Below are positions 1 to 13,613 of a stretch of DNA of 13,613 bases, one piece after another (position 1 is the stretch's first letter; every line of letters starts with the position of its first letter). The notes under the pieces were generated by a model that saw only the letters and a list, made by a program, of their open reading frames with translations, made no database searches and was not told where the DNA came from. The DNA lies in IMG/VR virus record IMGVR_UViG_2778261693_000009, one strand, 5' to 3'. Source of the DNA: a virus (taxonomy: Duplodnaviria; Heunggongvirae; Uroviricota; Caudoviricetes). The position numbers were made by a program, and so were the translations under genes.

Positions 1-933
1 ATGGACAACGACAAAATTGATCAACACAGCGACGAAATTGAAGTTGAGAGCGAAGAAAAAGAGCGCGGCAAAAAAATAGAAATAGATGAAGACCGACTCC
101 CCTCCCGGGCGATGGCAATTCATGAGCATATCCGCCAGGATGGTGAAAAAGAGCTGGAACGCGACGCAATGGCGCTACTGTGGTCAGCCATTGCGGCGGG
201 TCTGTCGATGGGCGCTTCGTTACTGGCAAAAGGGATATTTCAAGTCGAACTGGAAGGTGTGCCGGGCAGCTTCTTGCTGGAGAATCTCGGTTATACCTTT
301 GGTTTTATTATCGTCATTATGGCCCGCCAGCAATTATTTACCGAAAATACCGTGACTGCGGTACTACCCGTCATGCAAAAACCGACAATGAGCAACGTCG
401 GCTTACTTATACGGTTATGGGGCGTCGTGCTGCTGGGTAATATTCTCGGGACAGGTATTGCGGCGTGGGCATTTGAATATATGCCTATCTTCAATGAAGA
501 AACTCGCGATGCATTTGTCAAAATCGGCATGGATGTGATGAAGAACACCCCCAGCGAGATGTTTGCCAACGCGATCATTTCCGGCTGGCTGATCGCCACT
601 ATGGTTTGGATGTTTCCTGCAGCGGGTGCGGCAAAGATTGTGGTGATTATATTGATGACCTGGCTTATTGCCCTGGGTGACACCCCCCATATCGTGGTCG
701 GTTCTGTTGAAATCCTCTATCTGGTGTTTAACGGTACGCTGCACTGGAGCGATTTCATCTGGCCCTTCGCACTACCTACTTTAGCGGGGAACATCTGCGG
801 CGGCACCTTTATCTTCGCGTTAATGAGTCATGCACAGATTCGTAACGACATGAGCAATAAGCGTAAAGCAGAAGCACGCCAAAAAGCAGAACGTGCGGAA
901 AACATTAAGAAAAATTATAAAAACCCGGCATAA
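1..933 (+). CDS. yfdC: Host inner-membrane protein of the formate/nitrite transporter (FNT) family, YfdC-like; flanks the integration site
   Basis: 310-aa ORF starting at window position 1, with a charged N-terminus followed by several hydrophobic segments and a K/R-rich tail. The translation matches my recollection of E. coli YfdC, which lies next to argW. GC-normal composition. Confidence 0.75.
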   Translation: MDNDKIDQHSDEIEVESEEKERGKKIEIDEDRLPSRAMAIHEHIRQDGEKELERDAMALLWSAIAAGLSMGASLLAKGIFQVELEGVPGSFLLENLGYTFGFIIVIMARQQLFTENTVTAVLPVMQKPTMSNVGLLIRLWGVVLLGNILGTGIAAWAFEYMPIFNEETRDAFVKIGMDVMKNTPSEMFANAIISGWLIATMVWMFPAAGAAKIVVIILMTWLIALGDTPHIVVGSVEILYLVFNGTLHWSDFIWPFALPTLAGNICGGTFIFALMSHAQIRNDMSNKRKAEARQKAERAENIKKNYKNPA

Positions 934-967
934 ATGGCGAGGGTTTAAGCAATCGAGCGGCAGCGTA

Positions 968-997
968 CTTACCCCGCACTCCATTAGCGGGTATACT
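968..997 (+). promoter_or_regulatory. Candidate sigma70 promoter for the tRNA gene
   Basis: -10-like TATACT at 992..997, about 11 nt upstream of the tRNA 5' end, followed by a GC-rich discriminator (catgccgc). Weak -35-like TTACCC at 968..973 with an 18-nt spacer. By-eye call only. Confidence 0.3.
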
Positions 998-1008
998 CAT
1001 GCCGCATT

Positions 1009-1081
1009 GTCCTCTTAGTTAAATGGATATAACGAGCCCCTCCTAAGGGCTAATTGCAGGTTCGATTCCTGCAGGGGACAC
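1009..1081 (+). tRNA. argW: tRNA-Arg, anticodon CCU (argW-type); 3' CCA not fully encoded
   Basis: Cloverleaf folded by hand: acceptor stem 1009..1015 pairs with 1073..1079 (one G-U pair); D-stem 1018..1021 with 1030..1033; anticodon stem 1035..1039 with 1047..1051; anticodon loop 1040..1046 (CTCCTAA, anticodon CCT at 1042..1044); T-stem 1056..1060 with 1068..1072; T-loop TTCGATT. Discriminator A at 1080 is followed by C-T-T rather than C-C-A. Confidence 0.9.
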
Positions 1082-1107
1082 TTTAAAGACCTTTCTCTAC
1101 ATTTCAC

Positions 1108-1187
1108 TTCATTACATAACCACTTAAAAAACAGTAAGTTATCACCGAATCGGCCTGATTTTCATTTCAGTTAATTTCATGACATTA
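1108..1187 (+). promoter_or_regulatory. int upstream region carrying two sequence boxes that recur upstream of alpA (candidate shared regulator or Int arm-type sites)
   Basis: Box 1 TTCATTACATAAC at 1108..1120 is identical to 3528..3540. Box 2 TAATTTCATGACATTA at 1172..1187 is identical to 3549..3564 (19 of 20 matches when the preceding cag is included). Confidence 0.4.
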
Positions 1188-1266
1188 CAACCTCGTGATG
1201 GTATAAGTGATGGTATTCCCCAGTTCGATATGCAGATACCATCAATTTACCAAAATGAGTACAGAT

Positions 1267-2541
1267 ATGGCCATTAATGTGCTTTCCCCCAAACAGATAG
1301 AAAACGCCAAGCCGAAGACCAATGATTACAAACTTACCGATGGAGGGAGTTTGTATCTACTGGTACGAAAGACTGGTGGAAAATACTGGCGTATGAATTA
1401 TCGTTTTGATGGAAAACAAGTGACATTGGCATTAGGGGTCTACCCAGATGTCTCACTTGCAACAGCGCGGAAACGGCGTGATGAAGCCAGGCAACTACTA
1501 GCCGATGGTCGTGATCCTCGCGAAGCAAAGAAACCCAAAAAGGAAGACCCAATTTCCCCCACGTTCGAGAGTGTTGCCAGAGAGTGGCATAGTGGAACGA
1601 TGGGGCATCCTGAGTGGAAAGAGATCACCCGTAAAAAAATTCTCCGAGAAATGGAAAACCACCTCTTTCCTGCCATCGGTTCAAAGCCTATCGATACGCT
1701 CAAAACCCGTGACTTGATGCCGATGCTGGTTGAGATGACTGAGAAAGGAATTGGTGCCACAACGAGCCGGGTAAAAACCACTATGACGAGCATCTTCCGT
1801 TATGCCGTGCAACGTGGAATTGTCGATTACAACCCTGCCCACGATCTAAAAGGTGCAATTACGACCCCCAAAGTACGACATCGCCCCGCACTACCTCTCG
1901 AACGTTTACCTGAACTGTTAGCGAAAACGAGAAGTTACACGGGAAGACCATTGACTCGCCTAGCAGTTCTATTTTCCCTGCACACTTTTGTGCGATCCAG
2001 CGAACTACGACATGCCAGATGGGAGGAGATCGACATTGAAAATGGGCTATGGACGATACCAGGACAACGTGAAGAGATCGCAGGGGTTAAATTCTCAGAG
2101 CGGGGTGCAAAGATGGGGGCTGCTCATTATGTCCCGCTATCTAGTCAGGCTATCGGGGTACTGGAGGATATAAGGAAAATCAGTGGTGAATATCTGCTGG
2201 TTTTCCCCGGTGACAGCAACCCATATAAACCGATGAGCGAAAACACAGTTAATAAAGCACTGCGAACGATGGGTTACGACACTCAAAGTGATGTTTGCTT
2301 GCATGGGTTCAGGGCGATGGCCTGCTCTGCACTGACCGAATCAGGACTCTGGTCACGCGATGCAGTTGAACGGCAGATGAGTCACCAAGAAAGAAACGAA
2401 GTGCGGGCAGCATATGTGCATCTTGCGCAGCACATGCAGGAACGCCGCAGAATGATGCAATGGTGGTCTAATTATCTGGAACTAAATAAGGACGAATTTC
2501 ATGCTCCTTATGACTTATCAGGTATTAACATTATCAATTAA
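1267..2541 (+). CDS. P4-type site-specific tyrosine integrase (N-terminal Arm-type DNA-binding domain plus C-terminal catalytic domain)
   Basis: Lies immediately downstream of the tRNA. N-terminus MAINVLSPKQIENAKP...DGGSLYLLVRKTGGKYWRMNYRFDGKQVTLALGVYPDVSLATARKRRDEAR is typical of P4-like integrase arm-binding domains. C-terminal region contains HGFRAMA and RAAYVH (candidate catalytic His/Arg/Tyr) and the tail RRRMMQWW seen in argW-targeting IntS-like integrases. Start is ambiguous: in-frame ATGs at 1207, 1255 and 1267, none with a strong SD. Confidence 0.85.
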   Translation: MAINVLSPKQIENAKPKTNDYKLTDGGSLYLLVRKTGGKYWRMNYRFDGKQVTLALGVYPDVSLATARKRRDEARQLLADGRDPREAKKPKKEDPISPTFESVAREWHSGTMGHPEWKEITRKKILREMENHLFPAIGSKPIDTLKTRDLMPMLVEMTEKGIGATTSRVKTTMTSIFRYAVQRGIVDYNPAHDLKGAITTPKVRHRPALPLERLPELLAKTRSYTGRPLTRLAVLFSLHTFVRSSELRHARWEEIDIENGLWTIPGQREEIAGVKFSERGAKMGAAHYVPLSSQAIGVLEDIRKISGEYLLVFPGDSNPYKPMSENTVNKALRTMGYDTQSDVCLHGFRAMACSALTESGLWSRDAVERQMSHQERNEVRAAYVHLAQHMQERRRMMQWWSNYLELNKDEFHAPYDLSGINIIN

Positions 2542-2571
2542 ATTTTCTTATGATTTAAAACAGAGGTCATA

Positions 2572-3453
2572 ATGCAGCATTCAAAAGAGAATGAAACTAT
2601 ATTCTTAGGAAATCTATGGATTGACAAAAAAATACCACCATTAGAATATTGTTCATTTGAACGCGCTTCAAGACTATTAGAATGCGAGATTGATGATTTA
2701 TTACACCTATACGAAATAGGCGCTTTTAATATCGCATTCAAGGCGGATGGACTTGCAGTTAGATTTAATGTTAATTTCCTCTATAAAAATCAGAAAATGG
2801 AAATTGACTTAATTCATCCCGTATTAACTAATCAATCACTAGAGATGGAATTTTCAACAATATGGTATGACCTTAAAGATGACTCCTTTGAACATTTTGA
2901 AAATGGGCTTCAAATTATAGGATTTGCCTGTGGTATTTGGTACGCCGATGATATGATAAGTGACATAAAAAATGGATTAGCTATAGATCCAGATTATGAA
3001 TTCAGGCTTAAACCGGTAAAAATACGAGATAATGTTTTGATGGCAACGGCCTCATATGAAGGAAATAAGGTCATTGATATTCCATTTGAAGATCTTCTTA
3101 TCATGCGAAGAGATTTAGAGTTAATATGGAAATCAGTAAAAACTGGAATTCCTATGCCAAGTTTACTTACGAAAAGAATTTCATCTGAACCTAAAATCCC
3201 CAAGCGATTAAATAACACTGCTGAGCATCATGCAAAAAATAGGGAGGGGTTATTAAATGCAGCCATATATATATTAGCAAAATACCCAAGCGAATGTCGT
3301 GGTGAAAGAAAAGAGATAAGTCCTGAAAAGTGGACTAACGCCATAATTAAACATTTAGGAGAGCTACCTCCAATATTTATCACTAATGAACAAGAAATCT
3401 TAAGAAAATTACGATTAGCGGTTAATCATGCGGGATTAAAACAAAAGGGGTAG
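2572..3453 (+). CDS. Hypothetical protein, 293 aa; AT-rich orphan cargo gene directly downstream of int
   Basis: Clean ORF with SD AGAGG 5 nt upstream of the ATG, 30 bp after the int stop. Markedly AT-rich by eye (roughly low-30s percent GC versus over 50 percent in the flanking core genes). No motif I recognise (no P-loop, no obvious nuclease or HTH signature, no hydrophobic segments). Confidence 0.7.
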   Translation: MQHSKENETIFLGNLWIDKKIPPLEYCSFERASRLLECEIDDLLHLYEIGAFNIAFKADGLAVRFNVNFLYKNQKMEIDLIHPVLTNQSLEMEFSTIWYDLKDDSFEHFENGLQIIGFACGIWYADDMISDIKNGLAIDPDYEFRLKPVKIRDNVLMATASYEGNKVIDIPFEDLLIMRRDLELIWKSVKTGIPMPSLLTKRISSEPKIPKRLNNTAEHHAKNREGLLNAAIYILAKYPSECRGERKEISPEKWTNAIIKHLGELPPIFITNEQEILRKLRLAVNHAGLKQKG

Positions 3454-3519
3454 ACTGAAACAATCTACAGGTAGAGTTGATTACACTACCTTCACAGCAT
3501 TTTGATATCCCCATAGTAT

Positions 3520-3547
3520 CTGCCGTGTTCATTACATAACACGGCAG
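3520..3547 (+). promoter_or_regulatory. Perfect 10-bp inverted repeat (CTGCCGTGTT / AACACGGCAG) with an 8-nt spacer, just upstream of alpA
   Basis: Left arm 3520..3529, right arm 3538..3547. The repeat encloses box 1 (TTCATTACATAAC) and its right arm overlaps the weak SD region of alpA (ATG at 3556). No T-run follows, so it is more likely an operator or translational-control hairpin than a terminator. Confidence 0.4.
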
Positions 3548-3555
3548 GTAATTTC

Positions 3556-3771
3556 ATGACATTAAAAACTTATCCTATCACTGGACATGCCCGCCCACGA
3601 GCTACTGCTGACTTTTTGCAAATAAGTACGGTTACTCTCTGGCGCTGGGAAAAGAACAATCCTGAATTTCCCAAATCTATACGCATTTCAAAACGGGTAT
3701 CTGTTTACGATGCACAAGAAATTAGGCAGTGGGTTAAAGCTCAATCAGCAGGATTGGAGGAAGTAGTGTAA
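3556..3771 (+). CDS. alpA: AlpA-family (prophage CP4-57 regulator-like) small DNA-binding regulator/excisionase-type protein
   Basis: 71-aa protein containing FLQISTVTLWRWEKNNPEFPKSIRISKRVSVYDAQEIRQWV, which fits the AlpA/Xis-type winged-helix pattern. Located between int and the replication module as in P4-like elements. Confidence 0.75.
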   Translation: MTLKTYPITGHARPRATADFLQISTVTLWRWEKNNPEFPKSIRISKRVSVYDAQEIRQWVKAQSAGLEEVV

Positions 3772-3790
3772 TGACAATATTAACAAAGCT

Positions 3791-3810
3791 GGGGAGAAAA
3801 AAGCCTCCCC
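3791..3810. terminator. Candidate bidirectional hairpin between convergent alpA and the RHH gene
   Basis: GGGGAG (3791..3796) / CTCCCC (3805..3810) 6-bp stem with an A-rich loop; on the minus strand the loop reads as a T-run. Weak as a terminator. Confidence 0.25.
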
Positions 3811-3820
3811 AACGTATTAA

Positions 3821-4015
3821 TCAATTCTTTGGTTCTAAACCTCGGCTTTGTAACTCTTTGCGTAGAATGCGCTTGATCCAAGCCGCTAGCGATTCATCGC
3901 CATCCTGCTGTTGTGCTTGTTCCATCAGTTCACGCAGTTCAGGGTCAAGTCGGAACTGGAATGGCGGATTCCCACGTCTTTCATTTTTGTGTGTTGACAC
4001 GTCAATTACACCCAT
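3821..4015 (-). CDS. Ribbon-helix-helix (Arc/MetJ-like) small DNA-binding protein, candidate repressor
   Basis: 64-aa protein; FQFRLDPELRELMEQAQQ...SLAAWIKRILRKEL fits a beta-strand then two helices (RHH fold). Transcribed divergently from the replication operon. Weak or absent SD. Confidence 0.55.
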   Translation of the reverse strand: MGVIDVSTHKNERRGNPPFQFRLDPELRELMEQAQQQDGDESLAAWIKRILRKELQSRGLEPKN

Positions 4016-4021
4016 TGTAAT
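3994..4021 (+). promoter_or_regulatory. Candidate sigma70 promoter for the rightward early/replication operon
   Basis: TTGACA at 3994..3999, 16-nt spacer, TGTAAT at 4016..4021. Overlaps the start of the divergent RHH gene and the TGTAATG/CATTACA repeats. Confidence 0.45.
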
Positions 4022-4049
4022 GTATTTATGTGTAATGACACATTACACA
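4003..4049. promoter_or_regulatory. Operator-like cluster of TGTAATG / CATTACA half-sites
   Basis: TGTAATG at 4016..4022 and 4031..4037, inverted CATTACA at 4041..4047, and related AATTACA at 4004..4010; all overlap the candidate promoter between the RHH gene and the rightward operon. Confidence 0.4.
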
Positions 4050-4131
4050 CAGAAAAACAAAATAGCAACGCCCCGGAGTGTTTGCAGCACCACCGAGGCG
4101 TCTGACCAGCACGTTATATGAGGTAACGAAG

Positions 4132-4308
4132 ATGGCTAAACAGAAGTGTACCTGGTTATTTGCGGCGATCAACCGCAGTCAACGTAATGCCCGTCCGGTG
4201 ATGTTAAGGATCACCGCAGATAACGAGCGATCAGCGCGGCGCAGACTTGCCCCGGACTATGTACTGAGCTTTGCCGGGCGCATTCCCTGCGGAGGTGAAC
4301 ATGCGTAA
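4132..4308 (+). CDS. Small protein resembling the Icd-like (host cell division inhibitor) family of P4-like elements; assignment from memory
   Basis: ATG at 4132 preceded by GAGG at 4121..4124. 58-aa product MAKQKCTWLFAAINRSQRNARPVMLRITADNERSARRRLAPDYVLSFAGRIP. Its 3' end overlaps the next ORF by 8 nt. Confidence 0.45.
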   Translation: MAKQKCTWLFAAINRSQRNARPVMLRITADNERSARRRLAPDYVLSFAGRIPCGGEHA

Positions 4309-4660
4309 TTATCCGCATCCCGGCGAACGCTGGCAGCATGAACGTGGCTGGACGGTCACGATTATCCGATTAATAGAAGCCTCGCCCTCTGTGGCGCTGG
4401 TTAATCCTGAATTCAGCTGTGAAGTGCTGATACGTCATGACAGCGACAACCAGCTTTCTTCCTGCCCTCTGGCATGGTTTGAACAGCGATATACGCGCCT
4501 GTTTGATGTACCGCTCTTTAAGCCTGCACCAGCTCCTGCAGGCGGTAGTGGTTCCGGCCCGCTGACACTGCATCCGTCTGTGCTATTTATCCGCTGGCGG
4601 GAGCGTAGCATATGGCGTTCTGCTGAGCCTGATGACGGTCACTATTCAAAGTTTCTCTGA
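4301..4660 (+). CDS. Hypothetical protein (119 aa), satellite early operon
   Basis: ATG at 4301 with SD GGAGG at 4291..4295; overlaps the upstream gene. GC-normal; no recognised motif. Confidence 0.55.
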   Translation: MRNYPHPGERWQHERGWTVTIIRLIEASPSVALVNPEFSCEVLIRHDSDNQLSSCPLAWFEQRYTRLFDVPLFKPAPAPAGGSGSGPLTLHPSVLFIRWRERSIWRSAEPDDGHYSKFL

Positions 4661-4691
4661 CAAAACACCGCTGAAAACGGAGTAATCCACA

Positions 4692-4976
4692 ATGAATATT
4701 TCAAACGGGCACAACGGTGCTCAGGGCCAGACTTTGCCTGAAAAACACAATACCGGTGCTTTTGCCTATGGGTTGTCAGAGGACGGTTTCGGAAAGCTGA
4801 CCCGCGCAAGAAATGCCTGCGACATGCTCCAGCTTCTCTTTTCTGAATACCCGTCTCAGGCCGGAGCACTGGACGCAGGCTGTGCGCCTGGTGTCGCCGC
4901 GCTGATGGAGTACCTGCGGGCAGATTTGACGGATATTGCACACAGCTGCGCACTGATTGAAGGAGGTGCCAGATGA
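4692..4976 (+). CDS. Hypothetical protein (94 aa), satellite early operon
   Basis: ATG at 4692 with SD-like ACGGAG upstream; its stop overlaps the next start (ATGA). Identity unknown. Confidence 0.5.
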   Translation: MNISNGHNGAQGQTLPEKHNTGAFAYGLSEDGFGKLTRARNACDMLQLLFSEYPSQAGALDAGCAPGVAALMEYLRADLTDIAHSCALIEGGAR

Positions 4977-5356
4977 ACCAGCCGCAGGTTTCCATTTTCC
5001 CGGCAGAAATGACCACCGCGCTTTACCGGCGGGCTATTGCTTCAGCATGGCGGCAGAAAATGCTGAACGAAACTGGCAATGATCAGTATGGTCCGCACAG
5101 CCTGACGGTGGAGCGTATTGAAATGGCCATTGCGCTGCATATCGAGTGCGCACTGATTAACGAGTACGGCGAAGCACAGGGCGCCGCTGCCGCGCTGGCA
5201 CTGCTGACTGACATGCTGGAGCCGTCACTGCTGACCGCGCCGCCGGTACTGACCGCGCGCGGTTGTGAAGTAATGGCGGAGATGTACCGCACGCTTCCGG
5301 CGGCCTTTGATGTCTGCTGCAGTACCGGTGTGACGTTGTATCAGGGGGAAGTATGA
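4973..5356 (+). CDS. Hypothetical protein (127 aa), translationally coupled to the primase gene
   Basis: ATG at 4973 with SD GGAGG; its stop overlaps the primase start (ATGA at 5353..5356). Confidence 0.5.
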   Translation: MNQPQVSIFPAEMTTALYRRAIASAWRQKMLNETGNDQYGPHSLTVERIEMAIALHIECALINEYGEAQGAAAALALLTDMLEPSLLTAPPVLTARGCEVMAEMYRTLPAAFDVCCSTGVTLYQGEV

Positions 5357-8025
5357 CAATACAGACGGTTACGCAGATTTCAGCCGCCGCGCGGGGGAAA
5401 TGGCCCGTTATTCTGCAGATGCTGCGTATTGATGTACCTGAAAACGGCAGGCACGGTCCCTGCCCGAAATGTGGGGGCAAGGATCGTTTTCGCCTTGATG
5501 ACCTTGACGGGCGCGGGACGTGGATCTGCAGCCAGTGTGGCAATGGTGACGGTCTGGATCTGGTTAAGCTCGTAACCGGTTACAGCGTCAGAAAGGCTGC
5601 GCAGGAGGTGGCGCAGGTGCTTAATGTGCCGGATGTGCAGGAACTGCCTGTTAAGCCTGCCAGACAAAAAGCCCCTAAACGCGACATGGGTCTTACCGTG
5701 GCGGCGCTGATGAAAGAGAGCCACACGGGAGAAAGCGCCTATCTGACAGGAAAAGGGTTCGCCGGATACCCGGCCTCTCTGACCGGAAGCGTGCAGCATA
5801 TCAGCGGTAAGGATTTTCCTGCCGGTTCCCTGCTGTTACCACTCACGACCAACACCGGAGCCGTGACCGGTGCACAGCTTATCGCCCCGACGGGTGAAAA
5901 AAGCATACTGCCCGGCAGCACGATGAAAGGCGCGTTTGTGTCGCTCAGCCCGTTACCGTCTGAACCACCGGTACAGGTGGTGATTACCGAAGGTTACGCT
6001 ACGGCGCTGACGGTAAGCCAGCTCACTGCCGGATGCGTAGTGGCTGCCATATCTGCGGGCAACCTGCCCAATGTGGCGCAGTCGCTGCGGGCACGCTGGC
6101 CTGAGGTAAAAATTATCATCGCCGGTGATAACGATTTTCAGGATGGGGGGGAGAATCCCGGCAGAGCCTTTGCTGAACGGGCGGCAAAAGTTGTTGGCGG
6201 CTGGATGACGCTGCCACCAGGAGAGATTAAGGCTGACTGGAATGACTTTCATCGGGAGCACGGTATTACCCGTGCCCGTGAAGCCTTTCGCAACGGTCTG
6301 GTACTGTGCGGGGAAGGCCGCACGCAACTGCCGCACGGGTTCCGTCTTACCCAGGAATATCTCTGGTATGAAAAGCAGGTACAGCGCAACGGTGAGACGG
6401 AGATCCAGAACGTCAAAATATGCAGCCCGCTGCGCGTGACGGCAATCACCTGCGATGCCGATGGCGGTAACTTCGGACGACTGCTGGAATGGGAAGATAC
6501 GTGGGGTGAGCGTCGCCGCTGGGCGATGCCGATGGAAATGCTGAGCGGCAGTGGTGAGGAACTGCGCCGGGTACTGCTGGTTAACGGGCTGTCTTATATC
6601 AGCACTACCGGTGAGGCACGCGCACGCCTGATGGAATATATCTCACTGTGTAAACCGGAACGCCGCGTGACCTGCGTCAGCCGTACTGGCTGGCATGGTC
6701 AGGTTTACGTCCTGCAGGATGAGGTCAGCGGTGAAGGTGCAGAGGGTGTCATTCTCCAGACCACTTCCGTGCAGGGGCGTGATTTCCGCGTGTCGGGCAC
6801 AACAGAGGAATGGCGGGAGAACGTATCCCGCTACTGTACCGGCAACTCTCGCGTGGCATTTGCTGTCAGCCTGGCCTTTGCTGCACCACTGTTACGGCTG
6901 GTTGGTATGGACGGCGGCGGCTACCACCTCAAAGGGGAATCGACAGACGGTAAGACCACCACCATGAAAGCGGCAACCTCCGTCTGCGGCGGGCCTGACT
7001 ACTGGCAGACATGGCGGGCCACCGGCAACGCGCTGGAGGGATGCGCCAGCCGCCGCAACGATGCCGCCATGATGCTTGATGAGATCCGGGAAGTTGACGG
7101 ACGCGAGGCAGGCAATATCGCCTACATGCTGGCAAACGGTCAGGGCAAGGGCCGTGCCGGTACGGACGGTGAGCTGCGTACCCGTAAGCAGTGGCGCCTG
7201 TTGTTCTTTTCAACTGGCGAGTTGTCTCTGACCGAACATGCGGCAAAGGCCGGTGAGCGTACTTTTGCCGGGATGGAAGTCAGGATGATCCAGATCCCCA
7301 GCGATTCCGGGAAATTTGGCGTTTTTGAGGAGCTGCACGGCTTCGACAGCGGCAAGGCTCTGGCAGAGCATCTTGAATGGGCCACGTCCTGCTACTACGG
7401 TTCGCCGTTCCGGGAGTGGCTAAAAGCACTGACCGCTGATCTTAACGGACTAACGGCACAGGCAAAATCGCTGATGAAGGAATATGCTGCCGCCCTGACT
7501 CCGAAAGATGCAGGCAACCAGGTGGGCCGGGCTGTGAATCGCTTTGCACTGGTGGCGATGGCGGGTGAACTGGCAACCCGTCTGGGTATCACCGGCTGGC
7601 CTGAGGGTGAAGCACTGCGGGCAACCCGCGTCTGCCTGAACGCATGGCTGAAAGATCGCGGGCACACCGCCAATCAGGAAGATATTGCCGCACTGGAGCA
7701 GGTTCGCAGTTTCTTTACCGCGAATCAGTACAGCCGCTTTGCAGACTGGTATGACGAGCGCAACCGCCCCGGCAATATGGTGGGCTGGCGCAGGGTGGAG
7801 AAAGGCAGTACCGCGCAGGGCACGGAAGCTGTCACTACGTTCTATGTCATGCCGTCCGGCTGGAAAGAAATCTGCAGGGGATTTGACCCGCGCAAGGTGG
7901 CGCGTCTGTGCGCAGATCGTGGATACCTGCTGCCCTCCACTGATGGCAAACTCCAGACAACCATTCGCCCGCCAGAGATGAATCCCCGCAGGCTCTATGT
8001 CTTCAACAGCGAGGTGCCGGGTTAA
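5353..8025 (+). CDS. P4 alpha-like bifunctional DNA primase-helicase (zinc ribbon, TOPRIM, D5/SF3-type P-loop NTPase)
   Basis: 890-aa ORF with SD GGGGGAAG. Zinc ribbon C37-P-K-C40 ... C59-S-Q-C62. TOPRIM-like ITEGY (nt about 5984..6001) and AGDNDF (nt about 6121..6138). Walker A GESTDGKT (nt about 6934..6960) and Walker B MMLDEI (nt about 7066..7083). Confidence 0.9.
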   Translation: MTIQTVTQISAAARGKWPVILQMLRIDVPENGRHGPCPKCGGKDRFRLDDLDGRGTWICSQCGNGDGLDLVKLVTGYSVRKAAQEVAQVLNVPDVQELPVKPARQKAPKRDMGLTVAALMKESHTGESAYLTGKGFAGYPASLTGSVQHISGKDFPAGSLLLPLTTNTGAVTGAQLIAPTGEKSILPGSTMKGAFVSLSPLPSEPPVQVVITEGYATALTVSQLTAGCVVAAISAGNLPNVAQSLRARWPEVKIIIAGDNDFQDGGENPGRAFAERAAKVVGGWMTLPPGEIKADWNDFHREHGITRAREAFRNGLVLCGEGRTQLPHGFRLTQEYLWYEKQVQRNGETEIQNVKICSPLRVTAITCDADGGNFGRLLEWEDTWGERRRWAMPMEMLSGSGEELRRVLLVNGLSYISTTGEARARLMEYISLCKPERRVTCVSRTGWHGQVYVLQDEVSGEGAEGVILQTTSVQGRDFRVSGTTEEWRENVSRYCTGNSRVAFAVSLAFAAPLLRLVGMDGGGYHLKGESTDGKTTTMKAATSVCGGPDYWQTWRATGNALEGCASRRNDAAMMLDEIREVDGREAGNIAYMLANGQGKGRAGTDGELRTRKQWRLLFFSTGELSLTEHAAKAGERTFAGMEVRMIQIPSDSGKFGVFEELHGFDSGKALAEHLEWATSCYYGSPFREWLKALTADLNGLTAQAKSLMKEYAAALTPKDAGNQVGRAVNRFALVAMAGELATRLGITGWPEGEALRATRVCLNAWLKDRGHTANQEDIAALEQVRSFFTANQYSRFADWYDERNRPGNMVGWRRVEKGSTAQGTEAVTTFYVMPSGWKEICRGFDPRKVARLCADRGYLLPSTDGKLQTTIRPPEMNPRRLYVFNSEVPG

Positions 8026-8052
8026 GGCTTTGCGTGAGTCTTATTTATTAAG

Positions 8053-8247
8053 GGTAACAGGTGAAACAGGTGAAACAACCGTATTTTACAGGGCTGAACC
8101 TGTTCCACCTTCTGAAATAGTGAGGTGGAACAGATGTAACGCCAGCCAATCCGCTGTTCCACCTTGTTACCCGCGATGTTCCACCGGTGCAGTGTATATA
8201 AGTGCTTTATAAAACAAAGCTGTAACACATGTTTCACCTGTTCCACC
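8053..8247. repeat. Iteron cluster; candidate replication origin (P4 ori/crr-like) bound by the alpha protein
   Basis: Nine-mer TGTT(C/T)CACC in both orientations: GGTGAAACA at 8060..8068 and 8069..8077 (tandem, period 9, preceded by degenerate GGTAACA); TGTTCCACC at 8101..8109, 8155..8163, 8177..8185, 8239..8247; inverse GGTGGAACA at 8124..8132; TGTTTCACC at 8230..8238. An AT-rich stretch at 8191..8226 lies between clusters. Non-coding and immediately downstream of the primase-helicase gene. Confidence 0.7.
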
Positions 8248-8335
8248 GCATCAGGGACATAAAGCAGACTGAAACTGAGGGCATTTTTATCTGGCTGGCT
8301 TTCATAGCCACGTCTGAATAACCGCAAGCGCCCGT

Positions 8336-8391
8336 TGTGCCAGCCACCACACACTGAGTACCGATAGTGTGCTTGTGTCAGCCACGACACA
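8336..8391 (+). promoter_or_regulatory. Candidate Ogr/Delta-dependent late promoter (two TGT-N12-ACA dyads) upstream of the sid-like gene
   Basis: TGT(8336..8338)-N12-ACA(8351..8353) and TGT(8374..8376)-N12-ACA(8389..8391), both within 90 bp upstream of the ATG at 8426. The first dyad sits about 55 bp upstream of a plausible transcription start. Confidence 0.35.
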
Positions 8392-8425
8392 ATTGACGTA
8401 ACGAACCAACCCGACAGGAGAAGTC

Positions 8426-9169
8426 ATGAACAACACCGCAGTGAATAACAACCTTTCCACTTTTCCGGCTGTAACGCAGCGGGCACTGGAAACCATGAAC
8501 ACAGCCAGAAACGCATGGCTTGAAGCACGTCGTCAGCAGAAAGCGGCAGCGGATAATATTGCGACAATCCGCCAGCGTCGCGCTGAGATGGAAGCCACGA
8601 CGAACACACTGAATGAGGAGTGGCGCACGCTGTTTCGTGAAAGTCAGGGCGTGGTTTCAAAGGAAATGAAAAAACTGCGCACGGAAATTGCGCTGGGACG
8701 AGAAACGCTTGAGGATTTTGATGAGCTGCTGGCGGCTCAGGAAAGCGAAAATGCACTTTTGCCGCAGAAAGCTGCGGAATTAGCCGGAAAGTATATCCAC
8801 GCGCATAACATTCTTGTGGATATTCGCGCAAAACAAATCTGGGAAGATTTTATGCAATCGCATGGAAAAGCGCTTATTCAGACGCTGAGCCTGCTTAAAT
8901 CCACAATGGGCCGGGAAGCCAGTGCCGTTGTGGGTGTGGTGAATTCAGTTAATGACCCGGACACAGTGCTGAAAGACTTTATTCATAAACATATCACCAG
9001 ACCGGCTCTGGCTAACGATGCGATGCCTGAACAGGACCCGGTGTTTAAACTGGCGGGAATTGCCCCGGATTATGCGGCGCGTCTGGATTTCAGTAATCAA
9101 CTCTCTCCGGCAGCTATGCATAAAATTAAGGTTCGTCAGGAACTTGCTGAGAAGGAGAAAGCAGTATGA
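8426..9169 (+). CDS. Sid-like protein (candidate capsid size-determination scaffold); assignment by size, position and predicted helical character
   Basis: 247 aa (P4 Sid is about 244 aa). SD AGGAG at 8416..8420. Charged, helix-prone sequence rich in A/E/R/K/Q. First gene of a three-gene operon ending in an Ogr/Delta-like gene. Confidence 0.4.
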   Translation: MNNTAVNNNLSTFPAVTQRALETMNTARNAWLEARRQQKAAADNIATIRQRRAEMEATTNTLNEEWRTLFRESQGVVSKEMKKLRTEIALGRETLEDFDELLAAQESENALLPQKAAELAGKYIHAHNILVDIRAKQIWEDFMQSHGKALIQTLSLLKSTMGREASAVVGVVNSVNDPDTVLKDFIHKHITRPALANDAMPEQDPVFKLAGIAPDYAARLDFSNQLSPAAMHKIKVRQELAEKEKAV

Positions 9170-9717
9170 CGGCCCGAGGCACGCCTGACCAGGCACTTAC
9201 CAGTTTTCGGAATGCCCGTATTCTGTGGGCCGGACATAGTGAGAGCCGAAAAGCCGTTGAACAACAGATAGCATCTCTCCTCGCTGCCACAGAAAAACCA
9301 GCAGATTATGCCCGACAGCTCGAATTACTGCGGGAACGTCTGGATGTGCTGAAATGGCAAATTAACTGTGCTGCGCGCGAATGCATTTACTCGCAGCATT
9401 TACTGATGGAAGCCTGCACAGAAGCCGCTCTCAGCAATTTTATGCAGGCGAATGGGGCAGCCCTGACATCTGCACTGGCTCCGTTCCTGAAGGGGCGCGG
9501 GGGGGTTGACGTTGCGTCCCGTATATTACGCAGTGCTCTGGTTCGCCAGCTGACAATAACACCGCCTGAAATTGCCGGGGATTATCGTGAGATCCTGGAT
9601 GAATCCGGTTTGATGCCTGACCCCGGGATGATTCGTGATTGCCAGGGCTCTTACACCCCGGCACAACATCTGCGTTTTCAGCAACGCCTGAATGACATTA
9701 ACGATATACAGGAGTGA
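9166..9717 (+). CDS. Psu-like protein (polarity suppression / capsid decoration family); from size and remembered motifs
   Basis: 183 aa (P4 Psu is about 190 aa). Start overlaps the upstream stop (ATGA). Contains KWQINCAARECIY and FMQANGAALTSALAP, which resemble my recollection of P4 Psu. Shares the local motif FMQxxGxAL with the upstream 247-aa protein. Confidence 0.45.
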   Translation: MTARGTPDQALTSFRNARILWAGHSESRKAVEQQIASLLAATEKPADYARQLELLRERLDVLKWQINCAARECIYSQHLLMEACTEAALSNFMQANGAALTSALAPFLKGRGGVDVASRILRSALVRQLTITPPEIAGDYREILDESGLMPDPGMIRDCQGSYTPAQHLRFQQRLNDINDIQE

Positions 9718-9792
9718 TATTAATGGCACTTAAATGTCCGGAATGCGGTACAGTTGCACACGCCAGAACAGCAGCCTATGAAGCTCCGTCAG

Positions 9793-9796
9793 TTAA
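9793..9796. repeat. IS5 target-site duplication, left copy (TTAA)
   Basis: TTAA immediately precedes the left IS5 inverted repeat. Confidence 0.8.
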
Positions 9797-10991
<1,195 letters not shown>

Positions 10992-11402: not shown

Positions 11403-11421
11403 GGCGTGCGGGGCTGCGCAC
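11403..11421. other. Candidate degenerate cos-like sequence (P2/P4-type cohesive end); low confidence
   Basis: GGCGTGCGGGGCTGCGCAC loosely resembles the P2/P4 19-nt cohesive end GGCGAGGCGGGGAAAGCAC as I remember it (about 12 of 19 ungapped). It sits between the late operon and the AT-rich cargo, where cos lies in P4. Confidence 0.2.
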
Positions 11422-11621
11422 GGAGGCGGAATAAATAGTAATGCTATGGATGCTGGGCACACATAGATAAGAGGTTTACAAATAGTATGCTTGTTGTCGT
11501 AACTGATAGGGGTCTATCAAAATCAGAAATCAAAAACAGTATTTCGTGTAATTTATAGAATTTTCACAGAAAACATATACAATCGTTTCTGATACAGGAG
11601 TCTGATTAAGTTGGGATTATT

Positions 11622-13613
11622 ATGGCCATTCAAAAAAAACAAACAAAAAATTCTGAAAGAAGTATTAAAAGCCAGTTAGAAAAACTTACGGCTGAAAAAG
11701 CCATTTCCGAATATATTTGGAATGCTTTTGATGCTGAAGCCACAAATATTAATATTACAGTTATCCCAAATGGTTTAAGTGGGATATCTTCAATAGAAAT
11801 TATTGATGATGGAACTGGCATCGATTTTAATGAAGTCGATGAAACTTTCGGGCAGTTTTTAGATTCCAAGAAGAAAGCAAAACGAACGCCTGTCACAAGA
11901 GGACATAAAGGTAAGGGGCGGTTTTCATTCTGTAAATTCGCTGATAAAGCCGAATGGACTAGCTGGCGTAATGGAGAGAAATTTACGCTAACTATAGTTT
12001 CATCACATCTAAATGAATATGAGCATTCAGATTTATCCATGTGCTCTCATAAAAATTCTGGAACTAAGGTGGTCTTTAATCCTGTAACAATTACTGAAGA
12101 TTATTTTAATTCAATAGTTATACCCTATTTGCAGAACGATATATCTTGGCTGTTGGTGGCCAAACCAAAATTAAAATTAAAAATAAACGGTCAATCTATT
12201 AGCCCAATAGGATATGCTTCAACTTCAAATAATATTGAATTTGGAGAGGTCGATTTTAATTCAAAAACAGTTATATGGTCTAGTAAACCTGTAGTAGAAA
12301 AATCATATATATATTATTTAAATAATCAAGGTGATATTGTTTACAAAGAGTTTTCTGAGATGAACAAAAAAGGATTTGATTGTTCATCCTATGTCACATC
12401 AAGTTGGTTTGATGATTTTTCTGAATCAAACGACTTGTTTAATGAATCGAAAAACAGTGTTGACTCAGATATTTTTAAATACATTAGCCTACATGTTAAA
12501 GGTAATTTAAGGGAAGAGTATAGAAAATATAAAAATAATGCAGCAGATCAACTCATTCAAAACTATTTAAATGAGGGTGTGTTTCCAGAATATAAAGGTG
12601 AGAATAGAATGCTCAATGAATTTAAAAGGAATCAACTCATTGAAACTATAAAGATAATTTATGAGGCCGAACCTCAAATTTTCTCCACACTAAACAAGAA
12701 ACAAAAAAAAATCTTAATTAAACTATTAGATAGAATTGTTGAAACCAATAATTTATCCAGTCTCTTTGACATTTTTGAAGGTATAGTTTCCCTATCCGAA
12801 GATGAGGTTGATAAACTTTCATCTGTAATAAAAAGAAGTTCACTTTCTAATATTACGAGGACTTTGTCATTTATTAATGATAGACTGGATGTTATTGATT
12901 ATTTTAAAAAAATACTATATGAGAAAAAGAAAGAATCATATGAAGTAAAGCACATTCAAAAGAGCATAGAAAATAATTTATGGCTTTTTGGAGAGCAATA
13001 CACTCTAGTTGCATCAGAAGATGATAAGTTTGATAAAGCTCTTAGAAAGTATCTGGAGAAGACTAAAGGTTTTAACGAAGCACATTATAATAAGTATAGT
13101 GTACAGCATCCAGATAAAAATAAAGAAATGGATATATTTGCAGCACAAAAAATAAAGCGTTACACTGAAAATAATGAAGAATATTTTCATTGCATTGTGA
13201 TTGAATTAAAGAAACCAAGTATAAAACTCGGTGATGAAGAACTCGCACAAATAAAGTTATATAAAAATATAATATCTGCGACTGATGAATTTAAAGACGA
13301 TAATACAAAATGGGATTTTATTTTAGTGGGAAATGATATATCTAATAGCAATATCACTGCTGCAAATTTATCATCAGATCTAGAAACGAATAAAATACAT
13401 GGTGAGTTTGGCTTGGTTCAAAAAACAACAAATATGAAAATTTACGTCAAAACGTGGAAGCAAATTTTAAATGAGTATGATCTTAGATATAACGACCTGA
13501 TCGATAAGCTTAAGTTGAAAGAGTTAGAAATTGCAGAAGATATGGGGCCTGATGAACTCACGGCAAAAATTTTAGAAAAAACGGCAAGACTTCCGACTTC
13601 GATACAGGCTTAG
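11622..13613 (+). CDS. GHKL-family (Bergerat-fold) ATPase with a C-terminal PD-(D/E)xK-like putative nuclease region; AT-rich cargo gene and candidate anti-phage factor
   Basis: 663-aa complete ORF whose stop codon is the last three bases of the window. Weak SD GGGA 5 nt upstream. N-terminal motifs: E30-x3-N34-x2-D37-A38 (EYIWNAFDA), D62-D-G64-T-G66 (G1 box), G94-x2-G97-x-G99-R-F (G2-like). C-terminal motifs: D504 (EMDIF) ... E528-L-K530 (IVIELKK) ... Q543. Very AT-rich by eye (about 30 percent GC), unlike the satellite core. Confidence 0.75.
   Translation: MAIQKKQTKNSERSIKSQLEKLTAEKAISEYIWNAFDAEATNINITVIPNGLSGISSIEIIDDGTGIDFNEVDETFGQFLDSKKKAKRTPVTRGHKGKGRFSFCKFADKAEWTSWRNGEKFTLTIVSSHLNEYEHSDLSMCSHKNSGTKVVFNPVTITEDYFNSIVIPYLQNDISWLLVAKPKLKLKINGQSISPIGYASTSNNIEFGEVDFNSKTVIWSSKPVVEKSYIYYLNNQGDIVYKEFSEMNKKGFDCSSYVTSSWFDDFSESNDLFNESKNSVDSDIFKYISLHVKGNLREEYRKYKNNAADQLIQNYLNEGVFPEYKGENRMLNEFKRNQLIETIKIIYEAEPQIFSTLNKKQKKILIKLLDRIVETNNLSSLFDIFEGIVSLSEDEVDKLSSVIKRSSLSNITRTLSFINDRLDVIDYFKKILYEKKKESYEVKHIQKSIENNLWLFGEQYTLVASEDDKFDKALRKYLEKTKGFNEAHYNKYSVQHPDKNKEMDIFAAQKIKRYTENNEEYFHCIVIELKKPSIKLGDEELAQIKLYKNIISATDEFKDDNTKWDFILVGNDISNSNITAANLSSDLETNKIHGEFGLVQKTTNMKIYVKTWKQILNEYDLRYNDLIDKLKLKELEIAEDMGPDELTAKILEKTARLPTSIQA

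Follow-up and report, generated by a model that had tools for sequence, protein, structure and literature searches.

A cassette gene held between int and alpA in enterobacterial phage satellites, with a possible role as specificity factor for satellite excision or induction

The 13,613 nucleotides of IMG/VR record IMGVR_UViG_2778261693_000009, listed as a virus of the Caudoviricetes and in the following called the window, comprise the yfdC-argW region of Escherichia coli with an integrated P4-like satellite. Between the integrase gene int and the regulatory gene alpA of this satellite lies a gene for a 293-aa protein, which we call gene X. It belongs to an unannotated protein family (family X) that is restricted to satellites, and the slot between int and alpA is a cassette-exchange site. 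Tentatively, and with less than even confidence, we propose that X may be a specificity factor that faces the phage and acts in alpA-dependent excision or induction of the satellite. The features needed for the argument are the following:

1267..2541, + strand: int, P4-type tyrosine integrase that opens the proposed int-X unit (Pfam Arm-DNA-bind_3, Phage_int_M, Phage_integrase)
2542..2571, + strand: spacer of 30 nt between int and X with the Shine-Dalgarno (SD) sequence AGAGG (from the sequence)
2572..3453, + strand: gene X, 293-aa member of an unannotated, satellite-restricted family (open reading frame, homologues, dN/dS)
3556..3771, + strand: alpA, AlpA-family regulator or excisionase, always next after gene X (Pfam Phage_AlpA; locus contexts)

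A sequence-only reading of the window had described this open reading frame as strikingly AT-rich, preceded by a good SD sequence, beginning 30 bp past the integrase stop and free of hydrophobic segments, and all of this holds. The frame opens with ATG, the SD sequence AGAGG (2562-2566) lies 5 nt upstream, and the spacer separates it from the int stop codon at 2539-2541. The GC content of X is 0.336, compared to 0.476 for the whole window, and the deficit is strongest at third codon positions (GC3 0.25 versus 0.45 in int). Of the flanks, which had been taken for GC-normal, int is so (0.476), while alpA is itself somewhat AT-rich (0.421). From base composition we estimate a chance of about 2e-10 for an open frame of 293 codons in DNA this AT-rich. 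Since homologues exist and dN/dS is 0.09-0.20, X is protein coding. The maximum Kyte-Doolittle mean over 19 residues is 0.94.

Gene X had also been regarded as an orphan, which it is not. A word-indexed search gave 14 clusters of relatives and its repetition with a profile 31, and a HMMER profile search of 1.84 billion representatives retrieved 560 at E <= 1e-3 and 172 at E <= 1e-10, nearly all of them 260-350 aa long and aligned over the full length. All named members are "hypothetical protein" and all come from Enterobacterales, from the genera Escherichia, Salmonella, Klebsiella, Enterobacter, Citrobacter, Yersinia and Serratia as well as Pantoea, Pectobacterium, Brenneria, Xenorhabdus, Kosakonia and Intestinirhabdus. 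Searches of Pfam, PHROGs, NCBIfam, PADLOC and PDB sequences gave no credible match for gene X, for 79 family members or for relatives with a partial architecture. No match was obtained by tblastn of gene X against 50,697 phage records, and no published description of the family was found in the literature. Plasmid matches to gene X are few and include three Klebsiella records of 21-23 kb. Among the individual copies, the Klebsiella pneumoniae 'plasmid unnamed1' (NZ_CP033626.1), a circle of 22,859 bp typed as non-mobilizable, carries int-X-alpA-AntA-Icd together with a tape-measure gene; in appearance it is an excised satellite, or a phage-like element, that was assembled as an episome. A natural knock-out exists in E. 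coli CE0021a, where an IS1 lies inside the gene (NZ_CP119006.1, 4504600-4506258), and a truncated copy of 235 aa is present in the IMG/VR locus L038 (2501-3208).

The position of the gene is invariant. In 41/41 loci with visible neighbours, 18 from genomes or assemblies and 23 from IMG/VR, the order is int, X, alpA on one strand, and no family member turned up elsewhere than in this position in these loci, which represent about two dozen different alleles. The elements use four or more attachment sites, among them argW and sites downstream of yicC, downstream of der and near prlC. Besides the P4-like satellite of the window they include phage-inducible chromosomal islands (PICIs) with Ash, AntA and a D5 or DUF927 primase, and capsid-forming PICIs (cf-PICIs) with capsid, protease, HNH and terminase genes. 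An ATGA overlap between int and X occurs in the loci L015 and L017. In practically every locus it is X that is rich in AT: a codon-position analysis of 11 loci gives it a GC content of 0.32-0.40 and a GC3 of 0.22-0.34, compared to a GC3 of 0.39-0.59 for int, and in the IMG/VR loci its GC content reaches 0.43. This AT-richness is common to family members down to 15-30% amino-acid identity. The low GC content is thus an old, maintained property of the family and therefore no mark of a recent separate acquisition; it had been interpreted as suggesting a separately acquired gene.

Related satellites compared at the yicC and leuX sites demonstrate that the slot is highly variable. Five yicC-site elements from five genera have integrases that are 86-90% identical and X proteins with 29-87% identity, and integrase pairs with 99% identity occur with X proteins that share only 27%. 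In comparisons of loci with the same flanks, Int is 85-99% and AlpA 64-96% identical, but X only 20-36%. The reverse is seen for L010 and L012, where Int is 62% but X 81% identical (dS of X 0.6); since X is closer than Int, the cassette has moved between elements. Of 384 E. coli genomes matching a yicC-type int/alpA query only 41 contain the X allele of locus L003. Eight loci sampled at the E. coli yicC site (Int 85-99%, AlpA 64-96%) have seven different slot proteins, namely four of family X (316, 321, 281 and 307 aa), one DUF6387 protein of 283 aa, one protein of another type with 293 aa and one of a further family with 216 aa. The N-terminal part of X can also be joined to a different C-terminus, as is seen in L025; the 307-aa yicC protein is of this kind. 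The slot genes unrelated to X lie on the int strand as well: L021 2856-3707 (DUF6387, 283 aa), L024 1675-2556 (293 aa) and a family of 212-216 aa (L027 3760-4410, L032 3824-4462) that occurs in a PICI at yicC and in a P4-like satellite at leuX. This leuX element is a sibling of the window satellite with a backbone 97-98% identical, and its unrelated 212-aa slot protein is encoded at a GC content of 0.31. The idea that composition and position indicate a separately acquired cargo gene is therefore borne out in so far as the slot exchanges genes, while the composition argument and the term orphan had to be dropped.

DUF6387 (Pfam PF19924) resembles X in its place between int and alpA at E. coli yicC (L021) and in its length (283-287 aa), but a sequence relationship is not detectable (hmmsearch E = 1.5, hhalign probability <3%). 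The Pfam model gave no match to X or the 79 family members, while the L021 slot protein matches it at 1.8e-29. A DUF6387 gene lies beside alpA in the Klebsiella island ICEKp258.2 (PMC10763509); in the literature we found DUF6387 only in gene tables. Three further candidates were rejected. The K-12 gene yfjH of CP4-57, which is in the same slot, is no X homologue (BLASTP E = 1.7, hhalign 0.3%) and is oriented on the opposite strand. EcCIMP1_002, also in this slot, is described as about 10% of the size of UvrB and is too small for a family X protein. A C-terminal domain common to all slot families was suspected by eye, but hhalign found nothing.

An AlphaFold2 model built from 79 sequences (mean pLDDT 80.8, pTM 0.66; an earlier model from 30 sequences reached 68.7) divides X into the following parts:

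2629..2781, + strand: residues 20-70, strand-helix-turn-helix and long beta-hairpin, pLDDT 88-98, acidic with an isoelectric point (pI) of 4.8
2782..3081, + strand: residues 71-170, beta-rich, poorly modelled, strongly acidic (pI 4.4), most variable part
3214..3432, + strand: residues 215-287, conserved basic helical domain, pI about 9.5, pLDDT >95

Residues 20-70 show a weak resemblance at the fold level to a MerR/Xis-like winged helix. The middle part is only 7-20% identical between subgroups, with G121 and W123 conserved, and a helix follows at residues 179-191. The C-terminal domain carries the motifs ERHAxNRE and ECRGERKEISPEKW; its conservation is at the protein level, and synonymous sites are saturated. 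When groups with a common integrase are compared with each other, identity is 10-19% in the N-terminal and middle parts and 68-79% in the C-terminal domain, and both parts of X are under purifying selection (omega 0.05-0.22). No conserved set of catalytic-looking residues was found across the family, and no enzymatic or membrane motif in X. The sequence-only reading, which had recognised neither a catalytic nor a DNA-binding signature, was right about the former, whereas for the latter the weak winged-helix resemblance has to be noted.

This resemblance does not place X among the excisionases or the MerR-family regulators. Xis, AlpA and TorI excisionases, or recombination directionality factors, are basic proteins of 50-100 aa with HTH_17 or Phage_AlpA domains, whereas X has 293 aa, an overall pI of 5.96 and no match to the Pfam models HTH_17, Phage_AlpA or MerR. 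MerR-family regulators have a winged helix-turn-helix that is recognisable from sequence and a long coiled-coil dimerisation helix, both of which X lacks. A comparison with the neighbouring AlpA proteins by hhalign was not significant: the helix-turn-helix elements came out in register, but at a probability of only 5%, and the N-terminal domain was rejected as an AlpA paralogue.

The arrangement of signals around the gene is consistent with co-transcription of X with int, as had been suggested. The gap is short, relatives overlap by ATGA, and no terminator-like site was found on the + strand between int and X; a terminator-like hairpin occurs only past X. A promoter-like match at 2525-2554, a consensus match only, overlaps the 3' end of int. 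Downstream of X the following elements were predicted:

3450..3491, + strand: two tandem hairpins after the X stop (3450-3468 and 3469-3491), from RNA folding, an 8-locus alignment and palindromes in the single loci
3491..3519, + strand: promoter-like TTCACA-17-TAGTAT, candidate P_alpA (consensus scan only)
3517..3550, + strand: hairpin with a 13-bp stem (fold z = -4.8) that covers the sole SD-like purine run and stops 5 nt short of the alpA ATG

The int-X unit likely has its 3' end or its terminator in these tandem hairpins. Among loci with the main C-terminal type the sequence of the second hairpin is conserved, and each unrelated cassette has its own hairpin 10-16 nt past the stop codon. 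We had considered the palindrome after the X stop, GGTACAGT-N6-ACTGTACC, as an operator for X or AlpA. Because the unrelated cassettes carry hairpins of their own at this place, several with T-runs, it is better read as a cassette terminator or 3' hairpin. Further points against an operator are the G-U-compatible changes in some loci and the absence of the palindrome from loci with the same AlpA. Since X is followed by hairpins and alpA comes with a promoter-like site and a leader hairpin of its own, the layout appears to be an int-X unit, a hairpin, and then a separate control region for alpA and the genes behind it.

Some further observations concern the DNA before alpA. The hairpin at 3450-3468 has a T-run on the minus strand, scored as terminator-like there, and could act bidirectionally, blocking antisense transcription from the alpA side. 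Hairpins in the alpA leader are also present in L011, L003, L007, L014, L015, L018 and L021-L023, where they end 3-9 nt before the start codon. They belong to three leader types unrelated in sequence (CTGCCGTGTT/AACACGGCAG, CCCGTAAC/GTTACGGG and CTCCAC/GTGGAG) with z-scores down to -6.6; leaders were folded per locus, as the alignment across types is too heterogeneous for a consensus fold. The leader hairpin may gate alpA translation or act as an attenuator. In the island EcCICFT073, the int-alpA spacer of 365 bp contains iterated GAACAAC/GACACAAC motifs in two clusters (L020 6190-6260 and 6440-6480), which could be binding sites of a regulator.

A precedent for a gene in this slot comes from the PICMIs (minimalist chromosomal islands inducible by phage) of Vibrionaceae, in which iolg or icg genes lie between int and alpA on the same strand of a satellite with a primase gene (Barcia-Cruz et al. 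2024, PMC10803314). The window has the same arrangement (int 1267-2541, X 2572-3453, alpA 3556-3771, primase 5353-8025). An integrase-overlapping gene (iolg) shares 1-13 nt with int, and an integrase-contiguous gene (icg) adjoins it. The gap of 30 nt in the window makes the gene icg-type, while the X genes of L015 and L017, with their ATGA overlap, are iolg-type. In PICMI115, iolg also overlaps int by ATGA, and its deletion abolishes phage-induced excision and transduction (PMC10803314). As in the X slot, many very divergent or unrelated families are involved and some elements are without a slot gene: the PICMI genes form 13 unrelated families across 35 subfamilies, and three subfamilies have no such gene (PMC10803314). 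The systems differ in that PICMIs are minimalist elements of Vibrionaceae, whereas X is found in P4-like, PICI and cf-PICI elements of Enterobacterales, and a requirement for excision is known for PICMI115 iolg only. By position and strand, X can be regarded as a previously undescribed enterobacterial counterpart of the iolg/icg class.

For the partners of X and its part in excision or induction we infer the following scheme. X would be the second gene of a constitutive int-X transcription unit and would encode a non-enzymatic, two-part binding or adaptor protein. With its conserved basic C-terminal domain this protein would face something constant in the satellite or host, and would link up with the excision or induction machinery of the satellite itself (Int, AlpA, att DNA or the neighbouring control region of alpA). 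With its acidic variable N-terminal part it would bind a partner from outside that varies, most plausibly a product of the helper phage. In this way X would set which phage triggers alpA-dependent excision and induction. For the PICMIs the authors propose constitutive int and iolg, phage-induced alpA and an excision complex of Int, IOLG and AlpA (PMC10803314). For the PICIs of E. coli, AlpA is described as an activator that the phage induces, and neither a repressor nor the inducer encoded by the phage is named (Fillol-Salom et al. 2018, PMC6092414). A role as specificity factor is the most economical explanation because it takes up both the split into a conserved C-terminal and a variable N-terminal part and the iolg result.

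Several points weigh against this proposal. The intergenic DNA between X and alpA does not co-vary with the N-terminal type of X, so that nothing points to an operator dedicated to the variable part. At least three sequence-unrelated families also fill the slot (DUF6387, the L024 type and the 212-216-aa family), a pattern like that of a cargo hotspot. Some functional satellites have no slot gene; the slot of EcCICFT073 is empty, and X is therefore no universal requirement. Finally, the PICMI iolg deletion was complemented only by int and iolg together, and an effect on int is possible (PMC10803314).

In its logic, X as a specificity factor would resemble the variable Stl sensors beside int in the Staphylococcus aureus pathogenicity islands (SaPIs), though not in orientation or ancestry. 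Stl is a proven DNA-binding repressor that is transcribed divergently from the genes it represses, and its variability reflects different helper-phage proteins. Like Stl and the Rpr proteins of PICIs, X lies beside int, is extremely divergent between similar islands and combines an N-terminal helix-turn-helix-like module with variable parts. It differs from them in that it is transcribed in the direction of int and alpA in all loci, its helix-turn-helix-like domain is acidic, and neither divergent transcription with operators in between nor any other operator was found. Moreover, loss of the PICMI analogue blocks excision and does not derepress it, and X has no sequence relationship to Stl. 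Rather unlikely is the further possibility that X and its positional analogues are the hitherto missing sensors by which Gram-negative satellites detect helper phages, and match Stl in function through independent evolution; the N-terminal module would then bind a specific helper protein and the C-terminal domain would license alpA expression or the Int-AlpA excision complex.

The strongest competitor, which we consider possible but somewhat doubtful, is that X is an accessory anti-phage gene (single-gene defence, abortive infection or anti-helper) in a second cargo hotspot between int and alpA, with the variable part sensing phage components and the conserved C-terminal domain as effector. 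Conserved flanks, very divergent alleles and at least three unrelated families are a hotspot signature, and the AT-rich, self-contained cassettes, each with a terminator of its own, would suit such a site. Satellites are known carriers of defence genes (PMC13586616), including UP2 in a PICMI (PMC10803314). The defence hotspots of P4-like and P2 elements likewise combine conserved core flanks with rapidly exchanged AT-rich cassettes (Rousset et al. 2022; PMC13586616). However, the described P4 hotspot lies between psu/delta and int (in the window after 11416), and the int-alpA interval is not among the hotspots listed in surveys of P4-like elements (PMC13586616, PMC8628076). The systems in known hotspots differ widely in size and in the number of genes, whereas the occupant of the X slot is always one gene for about 210-350 aa, on the int strand and sometimes translationally coupled to int. 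Against PADLOC-DB v2 (5,027 models) the window protein gave no match at E <= 1 and the 79 family members had no shared match, apart from a lone weak match of L022 to the candidate PDC-S31 (E = 0.002). The protein has no enzymatic or membrane motif and no hydrophobic segment, a helical domain of 75 residues is unlikely as an effector, and all 41/41 loci have the gene in the int-alpA position. For the functions considered in the sequence-only reading (anti-phage, abortive infection, anti-helper) no defence model matched, and the sole experimental precedent in this slot, iolg, points to excision (PMC10803314).

That X works independently of phages, as an architectural recombination cofactor, appears improbable. 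Such a large directionality or accessory factor would use its Xis-like N-terminal fold to work on att DNA alongside Int and AlpA, but X shows no co-variation with either Int or the att site, since integrases with 99% identity pair with X proteins of 27% and the same Int occurs with unrelated families. The Xis-like part is also acidic and without the basic residues of excisionases, and EcCICFT073 excises without a slot gene (PMC6092414). The location of X directly after int, sometimes overlapping it, the N-terminal resemblance to the Xis/AlpA fold, and the need for iolg in PICMI excision together with the Int-IOLG-AlpA complex proposed there (PMC10803314) speak for a cofactor. Very unlikely is a function against the host, be it anti-defence, modulation of nucleoid silencing, or an AT-rich block serving as H-NS-bound silencer upstream of alpA: synonymous sites stay AT-rich throughout the family whatever the GC content of int and alpA, many anti-restriction proteins are acidic like X, and the allele turnover fits an arms race, but an overall pI of 5-6 is just mildly acidic, Pfam, PHROGs and PDB show no similarity of X to known anti-defence proteins, and because of the strong purifying selection on the protein it is the product that matters, not merely the composition of the DNA.

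The setting of gene X in the window agrees with the flank identities given by the sequence-only reading, with a P4-type tyrosine integrase before X, an AlpA-family gene behind it and argW as tRNA gene:

1009..1081, + strand: argW, tRNA-Arg(CCT), integration site and left end of the satellite (ARAGORN; Rfam tRNA; the order yfdC-tRNA-int also in E. coli 504211)

An Rfam scan found nothing besides this tRNA. The longest reading frame of int starts with GTG at 1207, while the RefSeq annotation of an identical element uses ATG 1267. Downstream of alpA follow an Icd-like gene, DUF5375 genes, the TOPRIM/DUF927 primase gene (5353-8025), a sid-like gene, psu and delta, and then an AT-rich cargo region that runs off the end of the window. 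Of 5,426 complete E. coli genomes 72 contain int and 66 gene X, always in the chromosome; int, X and alpA occur jointly as a module in 63 E. coli genomes. The satellite is a mosaic of positions 1-4091 and a backbone from about 4092 (4092-9796). P4-like satellites at other tRNA sites share this backbone at 97-98% identity, but they have different int, slot and alpA genes, with an integrase only 47% identical to that of the window.

An IS5-family element of 1,195 bp (9797-10991, 4-bp target duplication, transposase reading frame 9943-10959 on the - strand) splits the ogr/Delta-like zinc-finger gene delta (start 9723) about 74 nt past its start. The satellite of E. coli 504211, otherwise 99.6% identical, is without this insertion. 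Late-gene activation is probably crippled in the copy of the window. Homology to the 504211 element ends at 11416, where 504211 has two other hypothetical genes. In the window a very AT-rich region (11417-13613, GC about 0.28) follows, with a reading frame on the + strand (11622-13613, >663 aa) that runs off the end. It lies in the known P4 hotspot distal to psu/delta, and its N-terminus gives weak matches to MutL/GHKL ATPases and to a PADLOC model of a type II restriction endonuclease.

About 560 clusters that are now labelled "hypothetical protein" gain a genomic context and a domain map. If the cassettes were defence genes, the slot would be a second, unrecognised hotspot of satellites and would add several new single-gene families. 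As a specificity factor, X would be a concrete candidate for the helper-specificity step in the switching of Gram-negative PICIs, in P4-like, PICI and cf-PICI elements alike, and this candidate links directly to the sole genetic result available, the need for PICMI iolg in excision. Should the slot genes indeed be helper-phage sensors, swaps of the cassette would re-target a satellite to new helpers.

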